Shown here in pieces: positions 26,693-55,470 of a stretch of DNA of 64,000 nt. A program made the translations under genes and the position numbers. A model generated the notes under the pieces. The model was not told the origin of the DNA. It saw only the letters and a list, made by a program, of their open reading frames with translations, and ran no database searches. Numbering within the stretch: position 1 is the stretch's first letter; each line of letters opens with the position of its first letter. The stretch comes from Lentisphaerota bacterium (GTDB taxonomy: Bacteria; Verrucomicrobiota; Kiritimatiellia; Kiritimatiellales; Pontiellaceae), in NCBI GenBank assembly GCA_012729265.1, contig JAAYDL010000060.1:3015-67014 (forward strand), written 5' to 3'.

Positions 26693-26730
26693 CGTTTGAG
26701 CTGAGCGACCGGAGGGGAGGTGCCCTCAGG

Positions 26731-26792
26731 AATACACGAACGTGGGTAAGGCAGTAATTCTCTTTTCGTGTGGTTCGTGTATTTCGTGGTCC
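26731..26792. repeat. Degenerate 9-mer-periodic hairpin element (CACGAA family)
   Basis: AATACACGAA...TTTCGTGTGGTTCGTGTATTTCGTGGT; right arm nearly identical to the right arm of the 44737-44804 element. Confidence 0.75.
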
Positions 26793-26832
26793 AAACAATA
26801 TGAATTAAGTTAATTCCGTATGATCAGACCGA

Positions 26833-41377: not shown

Positions 41378-42074
41378 ACATTGTTCCTCATTCAAAAAGT
41401 GCCCGGCGATCTTATAGATTGTCGAGGTGTTGGGCAAGAGGAGGAAACGTTGTTTTTCGGCTACGGCAAAATCTAAGAAAGTCGTGTTGCCGAAGTCACC
41501 AGCGGATTGTTGGTCGCCCGAAACGAATTCTATACGGATTTGACATTGAATTCCGAGAATGTATACACGCGGCAATTGATGCCGGTGGAAATCAAGGCCG
41601 CGACCGTATTGAACTTCAAGCGAACCGGAAAACTCTTCCAATGAACCGATCGAAGGCCCGGATGAACCCTCATTGGCGCAAATTGACACCTTTACCTTGC
41701 AATTTGCACCTCCAAAGCGGGCACATAGCGTCGTTTTGTGAAATTAATTTTACAGAATGGTGCTTTTTTGGAGAATACATTTGCCATAACTGCATTTTGT
41801 GGCAGGTTTCGCCCAAGACGATCCCGCGACATTGAGTTTATGAAATACCGGTTGGGATCGCCGCTTGAATACGATGCGTTTAGGACAAAATAATTATTAT
41901 TGGCTCTTCTTATATTTTTATCGTGAACAGTATTTTTCGACCGGATAATAGGATCATCTGGATATTTTTTCTTAGAAGGCCACTCCATCCTGGCGATCTT
42001 CTTAATTTCCTTCAGCCCCTCTGCCGGAATGGGCAACCCGTTGCGTGTCTACGCCATAAAATACTTTCCCTGCT

Positions 42075-42282
42075 GATTTACAGGATTTGATCCGGTCTAT
42101 CCTGTTATCCCGTCAAAATATTTCTCCGCATTCACTACCATAAATTAATACGTATAACTTTATTAATCCTTGTTAATCATCAGCACGGCTTCAGAAAATT
42201 ATCTCCTCATATTCGTTTCCATTCGCGTTAATCCGCGGTTCCATCCCCTTCCCTTCGTGCCCTTCCTGCCTTCGTGGTGAAT
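42075..42282. repeat. Cluster of degenerate 9-mer-periodic repeat arms
   Basis: GATTTACAGGAT...ATCCTGTTATCCCGTCA (42075-42117); ATTCGTTTCCATTCGCGTTAATCCGCGGTT (42211-42240); CCTTCGTGCCCTTCCTGCCTTCGTGGTGAA (42252-42281). Confidence 0.65.
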
Positions 42283-42452
42283 TCCCTTTGCACCCTCGGG
42301 CCATGATCCTGTCAAAACAAACAAGCTCTGCGCTTCATTTTTATTCCAGGAATACTCACGAAACATTGCCAAACAGTTATATGGCGACATAAGATCATAA
42401 AAATAAAATTTGATTGACTTGCCCCCCTGTAAGCCCCTACACACTCCGAGCT

Positions 42453-43538
42453 ATGTTATACGACGTACCCGTACATTTAGGTGAGCGCTCCTATCGCATT
42501 ACGATTGGAGCGGGAATTATGGACACCCTCGGCCCGCGCTGTTCCGAGGTTGGACTGAAGGGCAAGTGTCTGATTATTACCGACGAAAACGTCGGCGGAT
42601 TATATGCCAAAACGGCCAAGCGATCGCTGGAGGCCGCCGGTTTTTCGGCGGCGCTGGAGACGCTTCCGGCGGGCGAGCAGACGAAATGCGGCGAGCAGGT
42701 GTTTAAGCTCTACAGCCGCTGCGTGGAGGCGGGGCTGGACCGCAAATCGTTCATTGTCGCACTCGGCGGCGGCGTGATGGGCGATCTGGCGGGCTATGTG
42801 GCGGCCACCTATTTGAGAGGCATTCCGTTTGTTCAGGTGCCGACCTCGCTGCTGGCGATGGTCGACAGCTCGGTGGGCGGAAAGACCGGGGTGAATCTGC
42901 CGGAGGGAAAAAATCTGGTCGGCGCATTTTATCAGCCCGAGCTGGTGCTGGCTGATCTGGAGACGCTCCGCACGCTTCCGCAGCGCGAATACCGCGCCGG
43001 GCTGGCCGAGGTAGTGAAATACGGCATTATTTATGACGCACCGTTTTTTGCGCTGCTGGAGGAAAACATTGCTCCGCTCGCGGATGTAGAAAATACAGAG
43101 CTGCTGGCCAAGGTGGTCGGACGCTGCTGCGAAATTAAGGCCGAGGTGGTGGCGCAGGATGAACGCGAAGGCGGACTGCGCGCGATTCTGAACTTCGGCC
43201 ATACGGCGGGTCACGCGCTGGAAAAGGTGGCGGGCTACGGCGAATATGTACACGGTGAAGGCGTCGCAATCGGCTCCGTTTTTGCCGCGCGCGCCTCGGT
43301 GGCGCTGACGGGACTTGCTCAGGCGGAGTGCGATCGGATTGAGCAACTGTTTGCGAATCTCGGTTTGCCGGTCCGCGCACCGGAATACGGCTGGGCCGAT
43401 TTGCGGGCGGCGTTGTCGGTCGATAAAAAAACCGTCGGCGGCATGCCCAAGTTTGTACTCGCCTCGGCCATCGGAACGGTTTCGTTCGGGGAAGAGGTTC
43501 CCGAGGAGCTAATGGAAACAATCTGGAAAAAATTATAA
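42453..43538 (+). CDS. aroB: 3-dehydroquinate synthase
   Basis: ALGGGVMGDLAG, PTSLLAMVDSSVGGKTG, LNFGHTAGHALE, HGEGVAIG. Confidence 0.97.
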   Translation: MLYDVPVHLGERSYRITIGAGIMDTLGPRCSEVGLKGKCLIITDENVGGLYAKTAKRSLEAAGFSAALETLPAGEQTKCGEQVFKLYSRCVEAGLDRKSFIVALGGGVMGDLAGYVAATYLRGIPFVQVPTSLLAMVDSSVGGKTGVNLPEGKNLVGAFYQPELVLADLETLRTLPQREYRAGLAEVVKYGIIYDAPFFALLEENIAPLADVENTELLAKVVGRCCEIKAEVVAQDEREGGLRAILNFGHTAGHALEKVAGYGEYVHGEGVAIGSVFAARASVALTGLAQAECDRIEQLFANLGLPVRAPEYGWADLRAALSVDKKTVGGMPKFVLASAIGTVSFGEEVPEELMETIWKKL

Positions 43539-43599
43539 CCACGGAAGACACCGAATACACAGAAAGTTGAGTTCCGTGTGTTCGGTGTATTCTGTGGTT
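43537..43599. repeat. 9-mer-periodic hairpin starting in the aroB stop codon
   Basis: AACCACGGAAGACACCGAATACACAGAA ... TTCCGTGTGTTCGGTGTATTCTGTGGTT (28-nt arms). Confidence 0.85.
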
Positions 43600-43607
43600 C
43601 AATCACA

Positions 43608-44738
43608 ATGCAGGATCGTGAAGCATATATTGTTCTGAATATGATCGACGGGCTGGGGCCGGTGAGCGTCCGGCGGCTGGTCGAGCGCCTCGGAACACCC
43701 AAAGCGATTCTGGAAGCCGACCGCGATACGCTGATGGAAGCGCATGGCGTCGGCGAAAAAATGGCGCTCAAGATTATCGTTCAGCGCGATCAACTCGACC
43801 CCGAGACCGAGATTAATAAGGCGGCCGACGAGGGGGCGCGGATTATCACGCAGCTGGACGATGAATATCCCGAGGCGCTGAAGAGCATTCATGATCCGCC
43901 GCTGGCACTCTATGTGCGCGGATCGCTGCTGCCGAGCGATGCCAAGGCGCTGGGCATTGTCGGCTCGCGTTCAACCAGCCATTACGGCTTGTCCGCTGCA
44001 GATCGGCTGGCCTATCAGCTGGCGCAGACGGGCTTTACGGTGGTGAGCGGACTGGCGCGCGGAACGGATACAGCGGCGCACAGCGGAGCACTTAAAGGCA
44101 AGGGCCGAACGATTGCGGTGCTCGGCGGTGCGATCGACTGCCTCTACCCGCCGGAGAATGACGGGCTGGCGGCCAAGATTGCCAACCACGGCGCAGTGAT
44201 CAGCGAATACCCGATGGGGCGGCAGGTGGATCGAATGACGTTTCCGTACCGAAACCGTATTATCAGCGGGCTGAGCATGGGCGTGCTGCTGATTGAATCG
44301 ACCGTGAAAGGCGGCTCAATGCATACGATCGATGCCGCGATGGAACAGGGCCGAACCGTCTTTGCACTGCCGGGGCGAATTGATATGCCCGGCGCACGCG
44401 GCCCGCATCGTTTGATTAAAAACGGCGCAAAATTAGTTGAATCGCTGGACGATATTTTGGAGGAGTTTGAGTTTTTGATTCCTGAAGCGGAGCGTCAGGC
44501 GCCGGCGGCGGAGACCGCAGCGCGGCCCGACGTGCCGTTGACGGAGGCGGAAACTAAAATTGTAGAAGCGCTCTGGGGCGAGGCACTCGACGTCGACTCG
44601 CTGGCGCGCGCGGTTGGGATGAAAAGCTACGAACTCAGCGGACTGCTGCTGGGCCTCGAAATGAAACGCGTAGTCTGTATGCGCCCCGGCCGGATGGTTG
44701 AACTGGCGGATGATTTAAGAACAGGATTTAGGAGCTAA
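43608..44738 (+). CDS. dprA: DNA-processing protein DprA
   Basis: IHDPPLALYVRG, IVGSR, VSGLARGTD, FPYRNRIISG, C-terminal winged helix. Confidence 0.95.
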   Translation: MQDREAYIVLNMIDGLGPVSVRRLVERLGTPKAILEADRDTLMEAHGVGEKMALKIIVQRDQLDPETEINKAADEGARIITQLDDEYPEALKSIHDPPLALYVRGSLLPSDAKALGIVGSRSTSHYGLSAADRLAYQLAQTGFTVVSGLARGTDTAAHSGALKGKGRTIAVLGGAIDCLYPPENDGLAAKIANHGAVISEYPMGRQVDRMTFPYRNRIISGLSMGVLLIESTVKGGSMHTIDAAMEQGRTVFALPGRIDMPGARGPHRLIKNGAKLVESLDDILEEFEFLIPEAERQAPAAETAARPDVPLTEAETKIVEALWGEALDVDSLARAVGMKSYELSGLLLGLEMKRVVCMRPGRMVELADDLRTGFRS

Positions 44739-44804
44739 CCACGAAATACACAAAATACACGAAACAGGTGGATGGTTTTCGTGTGGTTCGTGTCTTTCGT
44801 GGTT
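44737..44804. repeat. 9-mer-periodic hairpin starting in the dprA stop codon
   Basis: AACCACGAAATACACAAAATACACGAAA ... TTTCGTGTGGTTCGTGTCTTTCGTGGTT. Confidence 0.85.
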
Positions 44805-44824
44805 CATAACAGTAGGGAATTGAG

Positions 44825-47377
44825 ATGAGCAAAAATTTGGTAATTGTGGAATCGCCGGCAAAGGCGAAGACGATCGGTAAATATTTAGGCAAGGACTATA
44901 CGGTGATGGCCTCGGTGGGCCACGTACGCGACCTGCCGCAAAAAACGCTGGGCGTGGATGTGGAGAAAAATTTTGAGCCGGAATATGTCAGCACGACGCG
45001 CGGAAAAACGGTGCTGAAGGAGCTCAAGGCAGAAGCCAAAAAATGCGAAAAGGTATTCCTCGCGCCTGACCCGGACCGCGAAGGAGAAGCGATTGCCTGG
45101 CACCTTTTTGAAGCGCTGAAAAAGACGGTTCCGGAAGAAAACTTTTACCGCGTGACCTATAATGAAATTACGAAATCAGCGATTCTGTCGGCGTTTGAGC
45201 AGCCGCGTAAGATTGATATGAACCGCGTAAACGCGCAGCAGGCGCGGCGCGTGCTCGACCGCTTGGTCGGCTTCCAAGGCAGCCCGGTGGTGCGCAAGCA
45301 GATCCGCGGCGCACAGAGCGTTGGACGCGTGCAGACGGTGGCGCTGCGGTTGGTCGTTGAGCGCGAGAAGGAGATTGAAGGGTTTACGCCGGAAACCTAT
45401 TTTTCCGTCGGCGCCGAGGTCCGCAAACAGGAAGCGCCGCTCGATCCCTTCATCGTAAAGCTGGCGCGCATCAACGAAGAGCCGGTCGGCATCAAGGACC
45501 GCAAGCTCCTTCCGGGCGCGGTTAAAACAAAGGAGCAGCTCGAAGCGATGCAGCGCGAGCTGAAAACCAGCACGCTCAAGGTGAGCGATGTCTATACCAA
45601 ACAGGTCACCCGCCGGGCGCGCGCGCCGTTCATTACCAGCACACTGCAGCAGTCGGCCTCGGGATCGCTCAGCCTCGCGCCGGCGCGTACGATGAGCATT
45701 GCGCAGAAGCTTTATGAAGCAGGATTGATCACCTACATGCGTACCGATTCGTTCAACATTGCGCAGTCGGCGCTCGCCGAAGTACGCGATTTTATCCGCG
45801 AAAATTATGGCGCGGAATATCTGCCGGAAAAGCCCAATTACTATAAGAGCAAGGGCGCCGCACAGGAAGCCCACGAGGCGATCCGCCCAACCGATGTTTC
45901 CGTGGTGCCCGGAAACGAAGGCGTTAAACTCGATGCGGCGGAGCAGAAACTCTACCGCCTGATCTGGGAACGCTTCACCGCCTGCCAGATGGTACCCGCC
46001 AAGATTGATCGGCGCACGGTAGAAGTCGAAGCCGGCACAGAAAACAGCTATCTATTCCGCGCAACCGCCTCCGAAATTACCTTCCCCGGATATATGCGCG
46101 CCAGCGGCATCGAGGCCGCCGCCGATGCCCCCAAAAACGGCGAGAGCGACGAAGCAGAAACCGATGCCCTGCCGCCGCTGACGAAAGGGGAACCGCTCGA
46201 CGTGCTGAACTGGCTGGCGGAGCAGAAAGAAACCAATCCGCTGCCGCGCTATTCTGAGGCTTCGCTCATCCGCGCCCTGGAAGAAAACGGCGTCGGACGC
46301 CCGAGTACATACGCCGCCATTATGTCCAAGCTCGACGAGCGCGAATATGTTCTGAAGGAAAAGCGGTCGCTCATTCCGACCGAGCGCGGCAAAGAGCTGA
46401 TCGATCTGGTGCTCAAAACCGAGGCCAAGTTAAAATCGTCGAACAAGGTAGATCTGTTTGAAACGCATTTCACCGCCGATATGGAAACCCGGCTCGACCA
46501 TATTGAAGAGGGGAAGATCGAGTGGACGGAAATGATGCAGGGCTTTTACCCCTCCCTGCTCGAATGGATCGAACACGCCAAAGAGACCGCCGACCCCGGA
46601 ATGGTGGGAAAATGCTTCCAGGCGCTGGATCATGTGAGCGAATGGATGCCCCCCGTTAAATCCGGACGCCGTACGTACGACGACCAAAAAACCTTTGAAG
46701 ACCTCAGAGGAAAGGTCAACGGCGGCGAGCTGCTTTCCAAACGCCAAGGCGAAATGCTCCACAAAATGTGCTGCCGCTATATTCAGCAGATTCCCGATGC
46801 CCTCTCGAAAGAGCTGGAGCTGGTCGAACCCGAGGCCGTGCGCTCGGACACGCCCGAAAAGCTGGAGCTGCTTGCACGGGTTAAGTTTGATGAGCCGCGC
46901 AAGGTCGGGAAACGCACCTACGACGATAAAAAGTTCTGCACTTCGCTCAGCGATCAGATTGCTTTGGGCAAACGCCTGAGCGAGCGTCAGCTCGATTATC
47001 TCGACACAATGCTGACCAAATATTCCGAGCAGATCCCCGACTTCGATGCCGTAAAGGCCAAGTTTAAGCTCGGCGAAAAGAAAGAGGTCGTGGCCGATCC
47101 CTCTACCGCACCGCTACTGGCCTTGATGCAGCACGTCCGTGTATGGGCCGAACCGACCAAACGCGGCAACCGCGAGTTTAACGATAAAAGCTTCTTTGAA
47201 TCGCTCGCCGCGCAGTTTAAGTCCAAGGGTGCCCTTTCGGACCGTCAGATCGCCGCGCTCAAAAAGATGGCCGCGCGTTACGCCGACCAGATCCCGAACT
47301 ATGCACAGATGCAGGATCAGCTCGGCCTCCTCGCGCCCCGAAAACCAAAAGCCAAAAAGGAAGCTTCAGCCGAATAA
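44825..47377 (+). CDS. topA: DNA topoisomerase I with an atypical C-terminal repeat region
   Basis: IVESPAKAKTI, DPDREGEAIA, GRVQTVAL, ITYMRTDS, AHEAIRPT, GVGRPSTYA. Confidence 0.97.
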   Translation: MSKNLVIVESPAKAKTIGKYLGKDYTVMASVGHVRDLPQKTLGVDVEKNFEPEYVSTTRGKTVLKELKAEAKKCEKVFLAPDPDREGEAIAWHLFEALKKTVPEENFYRVTYNEITKSAILSAFEQPRKIDMNRVNAQQARRVLDRLVGFQGSPVVRKQIRGAQSVGRVQTVALRLVVEREKEIEGFTPETYFSVGAEVRKQEAPLDPFIVKLARINEEPVGIKDRKLLPGAVKTKEQLEAMQRELKTSTLKVSDVYTKQVTRRARAPFITSTLQQSASGSLSLAPARTMSIAQKLYEAGLITYMRTDSFNIAQSALAEVRDFIRENYGAEYLPEKPNYYKSKGAAQEAHEAIRPTDVSVVPGNEGVKLDAAEQKLYRLIWERFTACQMVPAKIDRRTVEVEAGTENSYLFRATASEITFPGYMRASGIEAAADAPKNGESDEAETDALPPLTKGEPLDVLNWLAEQKETNPLPRYSEASLIRALEENGVGRPSTYAAIMSKLDEREYVLKEKRSLIPTERGKELIDLVLKTEAKLKSSNKVDLFETHFTADMETRLDHIEEGKIEWTEMMQGFYPSLLEWIEHAKETADPGMVGKCFQALDHVSEWMPPVKSGRRTYDDQKTFEDLRGKVNGGELLSKRQGEMLHKMCCRYIQQIPDALSKELELVEPEAVRSDTPEKLELLARVKFDEPRKVGKRTYDDKKFCTSLSDQIALGKRLSERQLDYLDTMLTKYSEQIPDFDAVKAKFKLGEKKEVVADPSTAPLLALMQHVRVWAEPTKRGNREFNDKSFFESLAAQFKSKGALSDRQIAALKKMAARYADQIPNYAQMQDQLGLLAPRKPKAKKEASAE

Positions 47378-47416
47378 CTATTCAACAGAAGACCGCAAAG
47401 ATCGCGAAGAGTAAAA

Positions 47417-48040
47417 ATGAGCGCAGAAAACAGATTCGACCAGGCCGCAGAAGAGTGGGATTCGTTAGAGCCGCGCAAAAAGATGATCCGCGCGATCAGC
47501 GAGCGCATGTTTGAGCGCCTCCCGCTCAACGCCGAAATGGACGTACTCGACTTTGGCTGCGGAACCGGGCTGCTCTCGTTGCGGGTTGCCGATCAGGTAA
47601 AATCGCTGACGGGCATCGACACCTCATCCGGTATGCTCAACACGTTTGAGCAAAAAGCAACGCAGATGGGCCTGAAAAATACGCAGACACAGTGGCTGGA
47701 TCTGACACAGAAGATGGAGATTCCGGGGCAATATGACCTGATCGTCAGCAGCATGGTTTTCCATCACGTCAAGGAGTTGAACCCCGTGCTCGTTCTCCTC
47801 CACCGCGCACTGAAACCCGAAGGTCAACTCTGCATTGCCGATCTGGATCTCGATGGAGGCCTCTTCCACGAAAATGCGGTCGATGTCTTTCACAACGGAT
47901 TCGACCGCAAGGCCTTCGCCGAAGCACTGAAAACCGCCGGCTTCTCAGCGGTTGAAGTGACCGACGCCACCTCCATCACCAAACCCGTCGGCGATGAACT
48001 TCGGTCATTCTCCATCTTCCTCGCAACAGGAGAAAAATAA
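47417..48040 (+). CDS. Class I SAM-dependent methyltransferase
   Basis: VLDFGCGTG, GIDTS, YDLIVSSMVFHH, LKPEG. Confidence 0.9.
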   Translation: MSAENRFDQAAEEWDSLEPRKKMIRAISERMFERLPLNAEMDVLDFGCGTGLLSLRVADQVKSLTGIDTSSGMLNTFEQKATQMGLKNTQTQWLDLTQKMEIPGQYDLIVSSMVFHHVKELNPVLVLLHRALKPEGQLCIADLDLDGGLFHENAVDVFHNGFDRKAFAEALKTAGFSAVEVTDATSITKPVGDELRSFSIFLATGEK

Positions 48041-48146
48041 ACACCAAGCCACAAAGATCCTAAAGCATACCCTTCGCGACCTTTGCGTCCTTCTGTAAAA
48101 AAAATCAGTGTCCATTAGTGTTAATCAGTGGTTCAAAAATTCCGAC

Positions 48147-49100
48147 ATGAACGATCCGTGCATAGAACATTTTGTGAACTATCTCGAAGGCGAAAAAAAC
48201 GCCTCCGACCATACGATACAAAACTATCTCCTCGACATCCGGCAGTTCTGCGAAATCACCTGGGGAGAAAACGCACAGCCGCCCTACCCATGGAGCCGCA
48301 CCGACCGCTTTTCCGCCCGTAAATTTCTCGTCTTCTTCCAGAAACTCGAAATGGCCCCCACCACCACCGCACGCAAGCTCTCCGCCCTGCGCTCCTTTTA
48401 TAAATTTCTCCTGCGCGAAGAATATGTGGAGCAAAACCCCTTCAGCGGACTCAGCCTGCCGAAAAAGGGCGACTATCTCCCCCAGATTCTCTCTGTAGCG
48501 GAAGTCGGCAAACTGCTCGACGCCCCCGCCGAGTATGAGCAACAGCAGAACACCGTCGATCCGCTGCTGAAAATGTGGCGCGAATATAGGGTCGCCCGCG
48601 ACTCCGCCATCCTCGAAATGCTCTACTCCACCGGCATGCGCATCAACGAACTCGCCAAACTGCCCGAAACCCAGATCGACCTCCTCGCCGGCGTGGCACG
48701 CGTCCGCGGAAAAGGCAAAAAAGAGCGACTCTGCCCCCTCGGCGCCCCCGCCATACGCGCCCTCCAGAAAAACCTCGAACTGCGCGAAAACGTCTGGCTG
48801 ATCTCCGGTAAACGCGAAGCACGCAGCCCCGTCTTTCTCAACAAAAATGGAGGCGCCATCACCGCCCGTTCCATTGAGCGCATGATGAAAAAATATGTCC
48901 TCTTCTGCGGACTCAACGCCGAGCTCACACCGCACAGCCTACGCCACAGCTTTGCCACCCATCTCCTCGACGCCGGGGCCGACCTGCGCAGCGTACAGGA
49001 ACTCCTCGGCCACGCCTCCCTCTCCACCACACAAATCTACACCCACGTCTCCATCGAACGCATAAAAGAAGTCTACCAGCTCGCCCACCCAAGAGCCTGA
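48147..49100 (+). CDS. xerC: Tyrosine recombinase XerC
   Basis: ARKLSALRSF, LYSTGMRINE, GKGKKER, TPHSLRHSFATHLL, LGHASLSTTQIY; dprA-topA-xerC synteny. Confidence 0.9.
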   Translation: MNDPCIEHFVNYLEGEKNASDHTIQNYLLDIRQFCEITWGENAQPPYPWSRTDRFSARKFLVFFQKLEMAPTTTARKLSALRSFYKFLLREEYVEQNPFSGLSLPKKGDYLPQILSVAEVGKLLDAPAEYEQQQNTVDPLLKMWREYRVARDSAILEMLYSTGMRINELAKLPETQIDLLAGVARVRGKGKKERLCPLGAPAIRALQKNLELRENVWLISGKREARSPVFLNKNGGAITARSIERMMKKYVLFCGLNAELTPHSLRHSFATHLLDAGADLRSVQELLGHASLSTTQIYTHVSIERIKEVYQLAHPRA

Positions 49101-54679: not shown

Positions 54680-55470
54680 GCGCTCCGGGAAGTCCGCTGA
54701 TGCCGCATGGCGGGTATGAAAAGCTGCGGGCGTACCGGGTGGCGGAAGTGGTGTATGACGCAACGGTGGTGTTCTGCGACCGGTTCATTGATAAGCGGTC
54801 GCGCACGCACGACCAGATGGTGCAGGCGGCGCGCAGCGGCGTACGCAATATCAGCGAGGGCAGCGGCGCGGGGGCGACGTCGAAGAAGACGGAGATCCAT
54901 CTGACGAATGTGGCGCGGGCGAGCCTGTCGGATGAGCTGCTGAAGGATTATCGAAGTTTTCTGGTGCAGCGCGGTCTGCCGGTTTGGGATAAGGATTCAC
55001 CGAGGGCGCTGGCGATGCGGGAGCGGCTGCAACACGAGGAGGTGGACCGCCTTCCGCCGGAGAGAGAGGGCGTTGTGCGTCTGACGGGGCTGAATGGTCT
55101 GACCGATTTTGTGGCCAAGGCGTCGCCGGAGCTGGCGGCGAATGCGATGCTGTGCGCGGTAAATCAGGCGGCCTATCTGCTGCGTCGGCTGATGGAGCAG
55201 CAGACGCAGGAGTTTGTGGAGGGCGGCGGTTTTACGGAGCGGCTTTATACAGCGCGGACGCAGGCGCGTGCCGCCGGGGCGGCCGATGCGCCGACCTGCC
55301 CGCTGTGCGGCGAGGCGATGCGAAAACGGACGGCGGGCAAGGGCGCAAATGCGGGAAAAGCGTTCTGGGGCTGCACCGGCTATCCGGCGTGCAGGGGAGT
55401 AGTAAATATTTCTGAAAAGACTGACGTGTCCGACCCGCCCGACCGATCTAACGATGGAGAGAAAGCATGA
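54676..55470 (+). CDS. Four-helix-bundle protein with suffix domain and C4 zinc finger
   Basis: HGGYEKL, DQMVQAARSGVRNISEG, LTNVARASL.ELL.DY, EGGGFTERLY..R, CPLCG...FWGCTGYPACRG. Confidence 0.9.
   Translation: MSAPGSPLMPHGGYEKLRAYRVAEVVYDATVVFCDRFIDKRSRTHDQMVQAARSGVRNISEGSGAGATSKKTEIHLTNVARASLSDELLKDYRSFLVQRGLPVWDKDSPRALAMRERLQHEEVDRLPPEREGVVRLTGLNGLTDFVAKASPELAANAMLCAVNQAAYLLRRLMEQQTQEFVEGGGFTERLYTARTQARAAGAADAPTCPLCGEAMRKRTAGKGANAGKAFWGCTGYPACRGVVNISEKTDVSDPPDRSNDGEKA

Follow-up and report, generated by a model that had tools for sequence, protein, structure and literature searches.

Two hairpin-forming inverted repeats stand between aroB and dprA and between dprA and topA in a 64,000-nucleotide (nt) stretch of DNA, here referred to as the window, which belongs to the metagenome-assembled genome (MAG) of a Pontiella sp. 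(Kiritimatiellota; 3.41 Mb, 385 contigs, 53% G+C, 94% complete). On balance, these hairpins are probably gene-less ('solo') copies of the inverted arms of a cassette that is found across bacterial phyla and carries a gene of the GxxExxY family, the copying or replacement of the element being driven, as proposed here, by the encoded nuclease. The arm sequence and the GxxExxY subfamily go together, and the elements are inserted DNA with a very fast turnover (gain, loss, and swap of unit type) at fixed operon junctions, also within a species. A stop codon is built into each element end and serves as the stop of the upstream gene in compact Pontiella operons. Below, G000 denotes the window's genome (C, contig), L with a number denotes a fetched locus, and G041 is the genome of L031.

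Two hairpins between aroB, dprA and topA

Hairpin 1 (43537-43599, 63 bases) and hairpin 2 (44737-44804, 68 bases), both described on the + strand, start on the second base of the upstream TAA stop and share one plan, in which AAC is followed by three 9-mers of the form CAC(G/C)(G/A)AA-N-A and the mirror copy ends in GTGGTT. In hairpin 1, the left arm AACCACGGAAGACACCGAATACACAGAA (43537-43564; units AACCACGGAAGA, CACCGAATA, and CACAGAA, three 9-mers of the CACGGAA subtype) is separated by a 7-nt loop (agttgag, 43565-43571) from the right arm (43572-43599), which ends in GTGGTT. The stop codon (43536-43538) of aroB (3-dehydroquinate synthase; open reading frame (ORF) 42414-43538, +) lends its last two bases to this hairpin as the first two, and the ATG of dprA (43608-44738, +), the gene flanked by both hairpins, lies 8 nt beyond the right arm, at 43608. 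The last codons of dprA read TGFRS followed by TAA (44736-44738), where the left arm of hairpin 2, AACCACGAAATACACAAAATACACGAAA (44737-44764; units AACCACGAAATA, CACAAAATA, and CACGAAA, of the canonical CACGAAANA type), begins; a 12-nt loop (caggtggatggt, 44765-44776) leads to the right arm (44777-44804), which again ends in GTGGTT and is followed by CATAACAGTAGGGAATTGAG, a ribosome-binding site, and by topA (44825-47377, +), with its ATG at 44825, 20 nt past the hairpin.

Watson-Crick pairs form at 24 of the 28 arm positions in each hairpin, the period is 9 in both, and terminal inverted repeats are present. The RNA fold energy amounts to -37.1 kcal/mol for hairpin 1 (z -6.65) and -31.7 kcal/mol for hairpin 2 (z -3.66), none of 200 shuffles being as good in either case, and the opposite strand of both folds equally well. 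An earlier note on this DNA had described hairpins with arms of three 9-mers on the TAA stops of aroB and dprA, and the 28-nt arms, the period of 9, and the stable folds confirm that description. Rfam covariance models run over 41900-48300 at E<=1 gave no relevant match and no rRNA match, and a terminator scan reported neither hairpin; past the right arms, the sequence continues with CAATCACAATG and CATAACAG, respectively, without a T-tract.

The arm sequence and its GxxExxY protein across phyla

At least 119 stretches, from more than 12 phyla, contain the exact arm ACCACGAAATACACNAAATACACGAA (about 25-26 nt), against roughly 0.001 expected by chance, its hosts including Verrucomicrobiota, Planctomycetota, Acidobacteriota, Gemmatimonadota, Desulfobacterota, Alpha- and Gammaproteobacteria, Chloroflexota, Bacteroidota, Nitrospirota/Nitrospinota, Firmicutes, Actinobacteria, and others. 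A partner arm is present in 62 of the matches listed, and the loops of these 62 pairs are bimodal in length, measuring either 9-280 nt or, in ten cases, about 390-490 nt, with one outlier of 566 nt. Of the ten long loops (about 390-490 nt), which lie between exact CACGAAATA-type arms, nine hold a GxxExxY gene of one subfamily. Six proteins from such long loops share 56-81% identity in pairwise comparison, versus 18-41% with GxxExxY proteins that have other arms. The great majority of cassette genes run in the same direction as their neighbors (41 '++' versus 4 '--' across phyla), and they are therefore probably read from host transcripts.

A search that started from the protein gave 80 loci (57-69% identity, many phyla), 60 of which differ from the canonical arm at no more than 10 of 27 positions in either arm, and most of the remaining 20 carry variants of the same arm unit. 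The arms follow the pattern [A/C]CC[A/G]CGAAANN three times, mirrored on the other side, at about 10 nt from the start and stop of the gene. The unit logo of the 60 loci (CACGAAANA) is C(90%)-A(80%)-C(96%)-G(85%)-A(86%)-A(98%)-A(88%)-N-A(80%), and CACGGAA variants like those of hairpin 1 are among the set. Within these 60 loci, unit identity is 0.81 within a locus versus 0.74 between loci, a value that was reached by none of 1000 permutations. An arm of the canonical family is ACCACGAAATACACGAAATACACGAAA and that of another subfamily is CGCGAAAGAAC. A second pairing of arm and protein, which behaves alike, is formed by the proteins of the window genome's own C314:7684 and of L049, which are 73% identical and both have CGCGAAAGAACGCA arms. 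In one Gemmatimonadota MAG (CAYOLL01; L113, L139, L165, L168, L185), at least five copies of a CACGAAATA hairpin have common flanks (CCTGAATTATT ... TATTTCATGAAT), the loop also being common to three of the five, which looks like amplification of one solo hairpin within a genome in the manner of miniature inverted-repeat transposable elements (MITEs).

The cognate GxxExxY protein (PF13366/TIGR04256) has 125 amino acids (aa), and its structure model reaches a predicted local distance difference test (pLDDT) score of 93.6. The PD..ExK motif is kept, with D70 and K82 invariant and E80 present in at least 90% of 32 sequences. The nearest folds are generic PD-(D/E)XK nucleases (Cas4, lambda exonuclease, splicing endonucleases, and Hjc resolvases; template-modeling scores 0.45-0.54), and a sequence search of the PDB returned no relative with a solved structure. 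The median number of arms in 41 relatives is 11 where the genome encodes a protein with at least 50% identity to the cognate subfamily and 3 where it does not (Mann-Whitney p=0.024), and arm number correlates with the cognate gene (Spearman rho 0.44, p=0.004), with clear exceptions both ways and with statistics that ignore kinship and completeness.

On the sense strand, G-U mismatches should exceed A-C mismatches if the RNA stem were the selected object. The ratios are 19:20 in the window genome, 49:35 at Pontiella junctions (which are not mutually independent), and 59:51 in the cross-phylum cassettes, and these counts give no clear signal for RNA-level selection. The proposal of the earlier note that compensated arms imply selection on the hairpin is thus not supported, as the two mismatch types are balanced and conservation across phyla extends to the arm sequence as such, which varies together with the protein subfamily. 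This pattern fits sequence-specific recognition better than selection on shape alone.

Junction turnover, built-in stops and related arrays

For the comparison of junctions, 80 dprA loci were fetched and aroB, dprA, and topA were located in each. Across Pontiella relatives, both junctions may be without a hairpin, have hairpins of seven or more unit types, or be filled with a GxxExxY gene. At the aroB-dprA junction, six loci (L036, L042, L043, L052, L053, and L077) have no spacer, aroB continuing through GGCTAATG into dprA (...GGC TAATG) and AroB ending in LG. The short-hairpin form starts on or one base past the stop, with AroB ending in L, and its units in relatives include CACGGAAGA, CACTAATCTA, CACAAAGA/CACCAAGG, CGCGAAAGAA, CACAGATGAA, and others. 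The filled form of L049 has a GxxExxY gene between the arms AACCGCGAAAGAACGCAGAGAACGCGAAAAGG ... TTTTCGCGTTCTCTGCGTTCTTTTGCGGTTAA, and the gene-less hairpin of L035 and L037 at this junction has the same arm sequence as that filled cassette. The dprA-topA junction is unoccupied in L053 and L059 (18-28 nt), shows short hairpins of at least five unit types among other relatives, and holds an ORF of 130-131 aa in L039, L040, L042, L046 (P. sulfatireligans F21), L049, L050, L060, L067, L072, and L092, with decayed copies of this ORF in L069 and L070. A Pfam and NCBIfam scan of three junction ORFs (L046, L049, and L072) identified them as PDDEXK_3/GxxExxY (E 1e-33 to 1e-39). The gene-filled alleles that had been predicted for such sites are therefore found at both junctions of relatives, but the accompanying view of the hairpins as empty sites does not hold: hairpin-less junctions exist in six loci at aroB-dprA and in L053 and L059 at dprA-topA, so the hairpin must itself have been inserted.

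A DprA tree built from 34 loci of the Pontiella group requires at least 20 changes of state at the aroB-dprA junction (33 taxa, 9 states) and at least 17 at the dprA-topA junction (31 taxa, 7 states); hairpin types were classed by regular expressions, with L035, L037, L041, L049, and L059 classed by hand. Well-supported sister pairs differ in junction state (L059/L060, L067/L100, L039/L042, L036/L037, and the window/L031). In the last pair, the DNA of aroB, dprA, and topA is 96.5-96.8% identical up to the junctions, and both window hairpins are replaced in L031, by a CACTAATCTA 10-mer hairpin at aroB-dprA and by a 209-nt compound 7-mer array at dprA-topA. The comparison with this conspecific genome covered 18 arm-bearing loci of G041 (29 arms), of which 10 lie at contig ends or rearrangements and 7 are conserved in place in the window genome, while one 145-nt hairpin module (L315:766-910) is cleanly absent from the window genome, where the genes are one base apart (TGAAATG, G000:C51:44121-44128). 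Beyond its arms, this module has a further 14 nt (TAGGTCTGATAAGA) and 19 nt (AAACCCATTCCTCATAGCG), so that the unit that moves may extend past the hairpin, or the insertion process may add filler.

Two further features of the junctions were observed. An extra gene of about 140-200 aa, without a Pfam match and with an ATGA overlap with the aroB stop, is present at L049:2994-3410 and also upstream of dprA in L062, L063, L064, L070, L072, and L084; it is absent from the window. The last codons of DprA vary with the neighboring element (TGKF, TGFRS, QMK, and others before the stop; window 44720-44738, L036:1802-1830, L031:2297-2315). The stretch ACAGGATTTAGATAA lies past the dprA stop in L036, whereas those bases code for the C-terminus TGFR in L031. 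A former ACAGGAT-type repeat thus seems to supply the coding sequence for the DprA end in the window.

The built-in stop is apparent from the bases outside ACCAC at 177 element ends from all phyla, where position -1 is A in 73%, -2 is T in 44% or G in 25%, -3 is T in 50%, and -4/-5 are T in about 46%; C makes up 4-14% versus a background of 29%, and the pattern is alike at both ends. The resulting consensus, T(T/G)A-ACCAC...GTGGT-T(A/C)A, contains TAA or TGA. Stops that close ORFs of at least 80 codons and start two bases before ACCAC (TAACCAC) are about 12-fold enriched. In the window genome, every left end of the 9-mer family that could be evaluated (six) has TAA or TAG at CCACG or immediately ahead of it, and an opposite-strand stop is present at four of six right ends. 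In occupied aroB alleles, the last Gly codon is lost and the stop of the element is used, and the far element end lies a few bases before the next start codon, the element filling the whole spacer. Enrichment at stops, which the earlier note had proposed to check for TAA, was positive in the genome-wide hairpin scan: 12 of 35 periodic hairpins versus 21 of 175 non-periodic ones start at -6 to +3 of a stop (Fisher p=0.0036), with gene calls from a greedy longest-ORF model and hence approximate distances. The positional bias behind the idea of a stop-codon-targeting element is thus real, but the targeting is not borne out, as the stop is part of the conserved element end and only 9 of 62 cross-phylum hairpins adjoin an ORF stop. 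The built-in stop can be read as allowing the element to live in zero-length spacers, and not as proof of stop targeting.

Elsewhere in the genome, the pattern CCACGRAANACACNRAANACACGRAA with at most one mismatch finds 32 arms at about 20 loci versus none for the reversed control pattern, so that the arm family is far beyond chance. In the window, a 5'-shortened copy of the 9-mer family (26730-26790, +) consists of a left remnant (GAATACACGAA), a loop, and a full right arm (26763-26790), folds with z -3.0, and is near-identical in loop and right flank to a complete copy at G000:C381:71615-71690. A weak hairpin at 42080-42114 (+; z -1.65) has another unit type, ACAGGAT, which is also found at dprA-topA in L035, L038, L044, L048, and L052. 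Two lone right-arm-like arrays (...GCGGTT and ...CGTGGTG; 42211-42279, +) have no partner arm and are likely decayed remnants. At 48038-48133 (+), the TAA of a methyltransferase gene (47417-48040, +) is followed by ACACCAAGCCACAAAG..., a degenerate 8-mer-type array, and then by a lone 10-mer right arm of the CACTAAT type ending in GTGGTT. These degenerate 8- to 10-mer arrays and lone right arms at 42211-42279 and 48041-48133 fold no better than shuffles (z -0.7 and -0.5). The statement of the earlier note that 9-nt periodicity and arm symmetry are retained therefore fails for these sites.

The genome hairpin scan revealed many low-complexity periodic inverted-repeat families, among them 9-mers (CACGAAATA), 10-mers (CACTAATNNN), 8-mers (CACNAAGG), 7-mers (CGTATTG and GATTGCC), and others. 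The small genes of this genome include nine of PF05635 (23S-IVS/Avd-type four-helix bundle, above the Pfam cut-off; IVS, intervening sequence) and four of PF13366 (GxxExxY). Periodic inverted arms, with a unit that differs by locus, bracket every one of them, and the upstream arm begins at or just past the stop of the preceding gene. A link of such hairpins to GxxExxY and four-helix-bundle genes, as suggested earlier, is supported by this bracketing of every PF05635 and PF13366 gene. PF05635 genes lie between inverted 7-mer arrays (GTATTGC, GATTGCC, CTGAAAC) at G000:C135:12325-12917, C314:8964-9405, and C121:26069-26511, and a dozen or more gene-less hairpins with 7-mer units of this type are present in the genome (e.g., C273:22195, C178:9925, C266:6244, C232:1211, and C369:5108); the 7-mer arms and PF05635 genes are a system parallel to the GxxExxY one. 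Weak PF05635-like matches (E 1e-4 to 6e-6, under the Pfam cut-off) occur at window 54727-54930 (G000:C381:57741-57944) and seven other loci, in ORFs of 225-274 aa that number about eight in the genome and could form a family of longer paralogs containing a four-helix-bundle domain. The 9-mer hairpin also occurs inside a longer repeat with the same loop and the right flank CCAAACAATATGAATTAAGTTAATTCCGTAT (G000:C381:71537-71713, which equals C41:1-127; window 26730-26820; C362:7455-7537); since this repeat recurs and coincides with contig ends, such elements break the assembly. A separate REP-like family (GTAGACGNAGCNTCCNGCTNCGT) forms inverted pairs without periodic units on many contigs (e.g., C264:19550-19618, C223:1379-1457, and C327:3173-3249).

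Proposed mechanism, rival readings and related systems

The full cassette consists of an arm of three CACGAAANA 9-mers, about 10 nt, the 125-aa GxxExxY gene, another 10 nt or so, and the inverted arm. In the explanation favored here, the six 9-mers would be recognition sites of the cognate GxxExxY nuclease, and its binding or cutting of the arms, as duplex, cruciform, or single-stranded hairpin DNA, may drive the copying or replacement of the element. Much as in REP/RAYT or NTS/Ssn pairs, solo hairpins would then act as the non-autonomous copies, and the approximately 20 hairpin loci of the window genome are probably orphans, because no cognate gene was found there. The stem formed in the transcript would bring the upstream stop beside the downstream start, which probably makes the insertion tolerable.

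Several observations weigh against this explanation. The best match to the cognate gene in the window genome has only 37% identity, despite the 32 arms (in an assembly that is 94% complete, in 385 contigs), and several relatives possess the gene with 0-3 arms, so that the arms depend on the nuclease only loosely, if at all. A 125-aa nuclease of this kind is not known to act as a transposase, and there is no transposase-encoding parent element, the full form encoding only this nuclease-fold protein. A tblastn search of the loops of 40-280 nt detected no GxxExxY remnants, which speaks against gene-less hairpins being simple recent deletions. The cross-phylum arm search demanded an exact left arm and gives a biased sample, the protein-first set having median mismatches of 7 (left) and 6.5 (right) in 27 positions, and the concerted evolution of units is modest (0.81 versus 0.74). 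No target-site duplication was established, as the palindromic TA at each end could equally extend the inverted repeat, and the 145-nt presence/absence case brings 14 + 19 bases besides the arms and leaves an AT ambiguity of 2 nt. Some of the apparent turnover could instead reflect homologous recombination that exchanges alleles among Pontiella species, and movement of the element is inferred rather than directly observed.

A broader proposal is put forward tentatively, as possible but rather doubtful at this stage. GxxExxY proteins would be sequence-specific nucleases that read three phased 9-mers per arm and form, with these arms, a new pan-bacterial class of selfish elements distinct from usual transposons. 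Such elements would have their own stops at both ends and be exchanged at zero-length operon spacers, and their gene-less hairpins would be non-autonomous copies that could persist as orphans (32 arms here) after loss of the gene.

Among the alternatives, host-selected RNA hairpins come nearest, although they seem unlikely. Here, the stems would stabilize the upstream mRNA, serve as RNase III sites, or couple translation, like E. coli REP elements near stops, and the GxxExxY genes would be incidental passengers. The very stable sense-strand folds, the placement exactly between stop and next start in co-directional gene rows, the co-orientation of cassette genes (41:4), and the slight G-U excess at Pontiella junctions (49:35) agree with this. 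The overall G-U/A-C balance and the equally good folding of both strands do not, the same junction can be without a hairpin or have one of seven or more unrelated unit types, and the arm sequence is conserved across phyla beyond pairing and tied to one protein subfamily; the mismatch counts as such decide neither for nor against a function at the RNA level. Somewhat less credible still is the reading of the earlier note, in which short hairpins are pre-existing target sites and a GxxExxY or four-helix-bundle gene was later inserted in the loop. Bimodal loop lengths with short loops free of gene remnants would follow from it, as would gene-less and filled alleles with the same arms at one junction (L035/L037 versus L049), but the hairpin-free junctions indicate that the hairpin itself was inserted, the arms covary with the protein subfamily across phyla as if travelling together, and the distance from arm to gene hardly varies, at about 10 nt.

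Growth in place, by replication slippage and template switching between the arms of a quasi-palindrome, with neither mobility nor a protein partner, is very improbable as a full account, as identical 26-nt arms in unrelated phyla and a fixed link to a GxxExxY subfamily cannot arise independently in place. It is in line with units that are more alike within than between loci, with alleles whose unit resembles the adjacent coding end (ACAGGAT at the dprA end; L036 versus L031), and with mismatch types that are symmetrical at the DNA level, and slippage or template switching may contribute to the homogenizing of units. Ordinary rho-independent terminators or attenuators can hardly be credited at all: a stable stem-loop does stand directly past each stop codon, but neither stem is followed by a T-tract or reported by the terminator scan, the next gene runs in the same direction 8-20 nt on, and the sequence family is cross-phylum and gene-linked.

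Among the papers searched, none describes GxxExxY cassettes or contains the arm sequence. REP/REPIN sequences with their partner gene RAYT are repeat elements of Pseudomonas and E. coli. The elements described here resemble them as short intergenic palindromic repeats with tens of copies and inverted doublets that form hairpins (here 32 arms at about 20 loci), with a single-copy gene flanked by inverted repeats, a repeat type that tracks the gene lineage, and many copies just past stops in operons. Unlike RAYT, an IS200/IS605-type Y1 (HUH) transposase, the partner here is a 125-aa PD-(D/E)XK GxxExxY protein (PF13366), and unlike REP, the arm is made of three direct 9-mers instead of one palindrome, is common to many phyla, and has a built-in stop at its end. 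Ssn is reported to be a GIY-YIG single-strand nuclease specific for its own NTS repeat (PMC11893778). The likeness lies in a small nuclease gene linked to a short repeat with many copies around genes, whereas the fold is PD-(D/E)XK here and GIY-YIG there, and a periodic 9-mer arrangement is not described for the NTS repeats.

ORF-bearing IVSs of 23S rRNA are known from Leptospira and from Coxiella burnetii, where the helix-45 IVS carries the S23p ORF (PMC4990558). Both systems have a small ORF inside a long inverted-repeat stem that does not destroy the transcript and is regarded as selfish, and the nine PF05635 (S23p/Avd-type) genes of the window genome are all arm-bracketed, but in mRNA operons; the window hairpins, by contrast, belong to the arm family of GxxExxY and not of PF05635, and lie between the protein genes aroB, dprA, and topA instead of in rRNA. 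MITEs are comparable in their two terminal inverted repeats with little between, multiple copies, hairpin folding, a gene-bearing full form, and multiple sub-terminal units as in many transposon ends, but here there is no transposase and no proven target-site duplication, and the internal loops are unrelated between copies. Integron attC sites share an imperfect inverted repeat right after an ORF stop with conserved ends and a variable middle. The ends TTATAAC/AGCTAAC (left) and GTTCAAT/GTTCATA (right), however, do not fit RYYYAAC/GTTRRRY, the gene is inside the repeat and not before it, and the flanks are housekeeping genes and not cassette arrays. REP/REPIN-RAYT, NTS/Ssn, and the 23S IVS each fail at least one defining feature here.

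Genes of GxxExxY (TIGR04256/PF13366) and PF05635 are annotated by the thousand, and to our knowledge no role has been assigned to them. Periodic low-complexity hairpins in genomes of the Planctomycetes-Verrucomicrobia-Chlamydiae group are usually ignored or called terminators. For annotation, it matters that the hairpins supply the stops and last residues of AroB and DprA and break short-read assemblies. An arm common to more than 12 phyla, together with one nuclease subfamily and exchange within a species, provides a concrete and testable pair of protein and DNA site. Should the nuclease indeed read CACGAAANA arrays, a repeat-plus-nuclease lifestyle would have been invented independently for a third time, next to REP/RAYT and NTS/Ssn, and the family would be a source of small sequence-specific nucleases.

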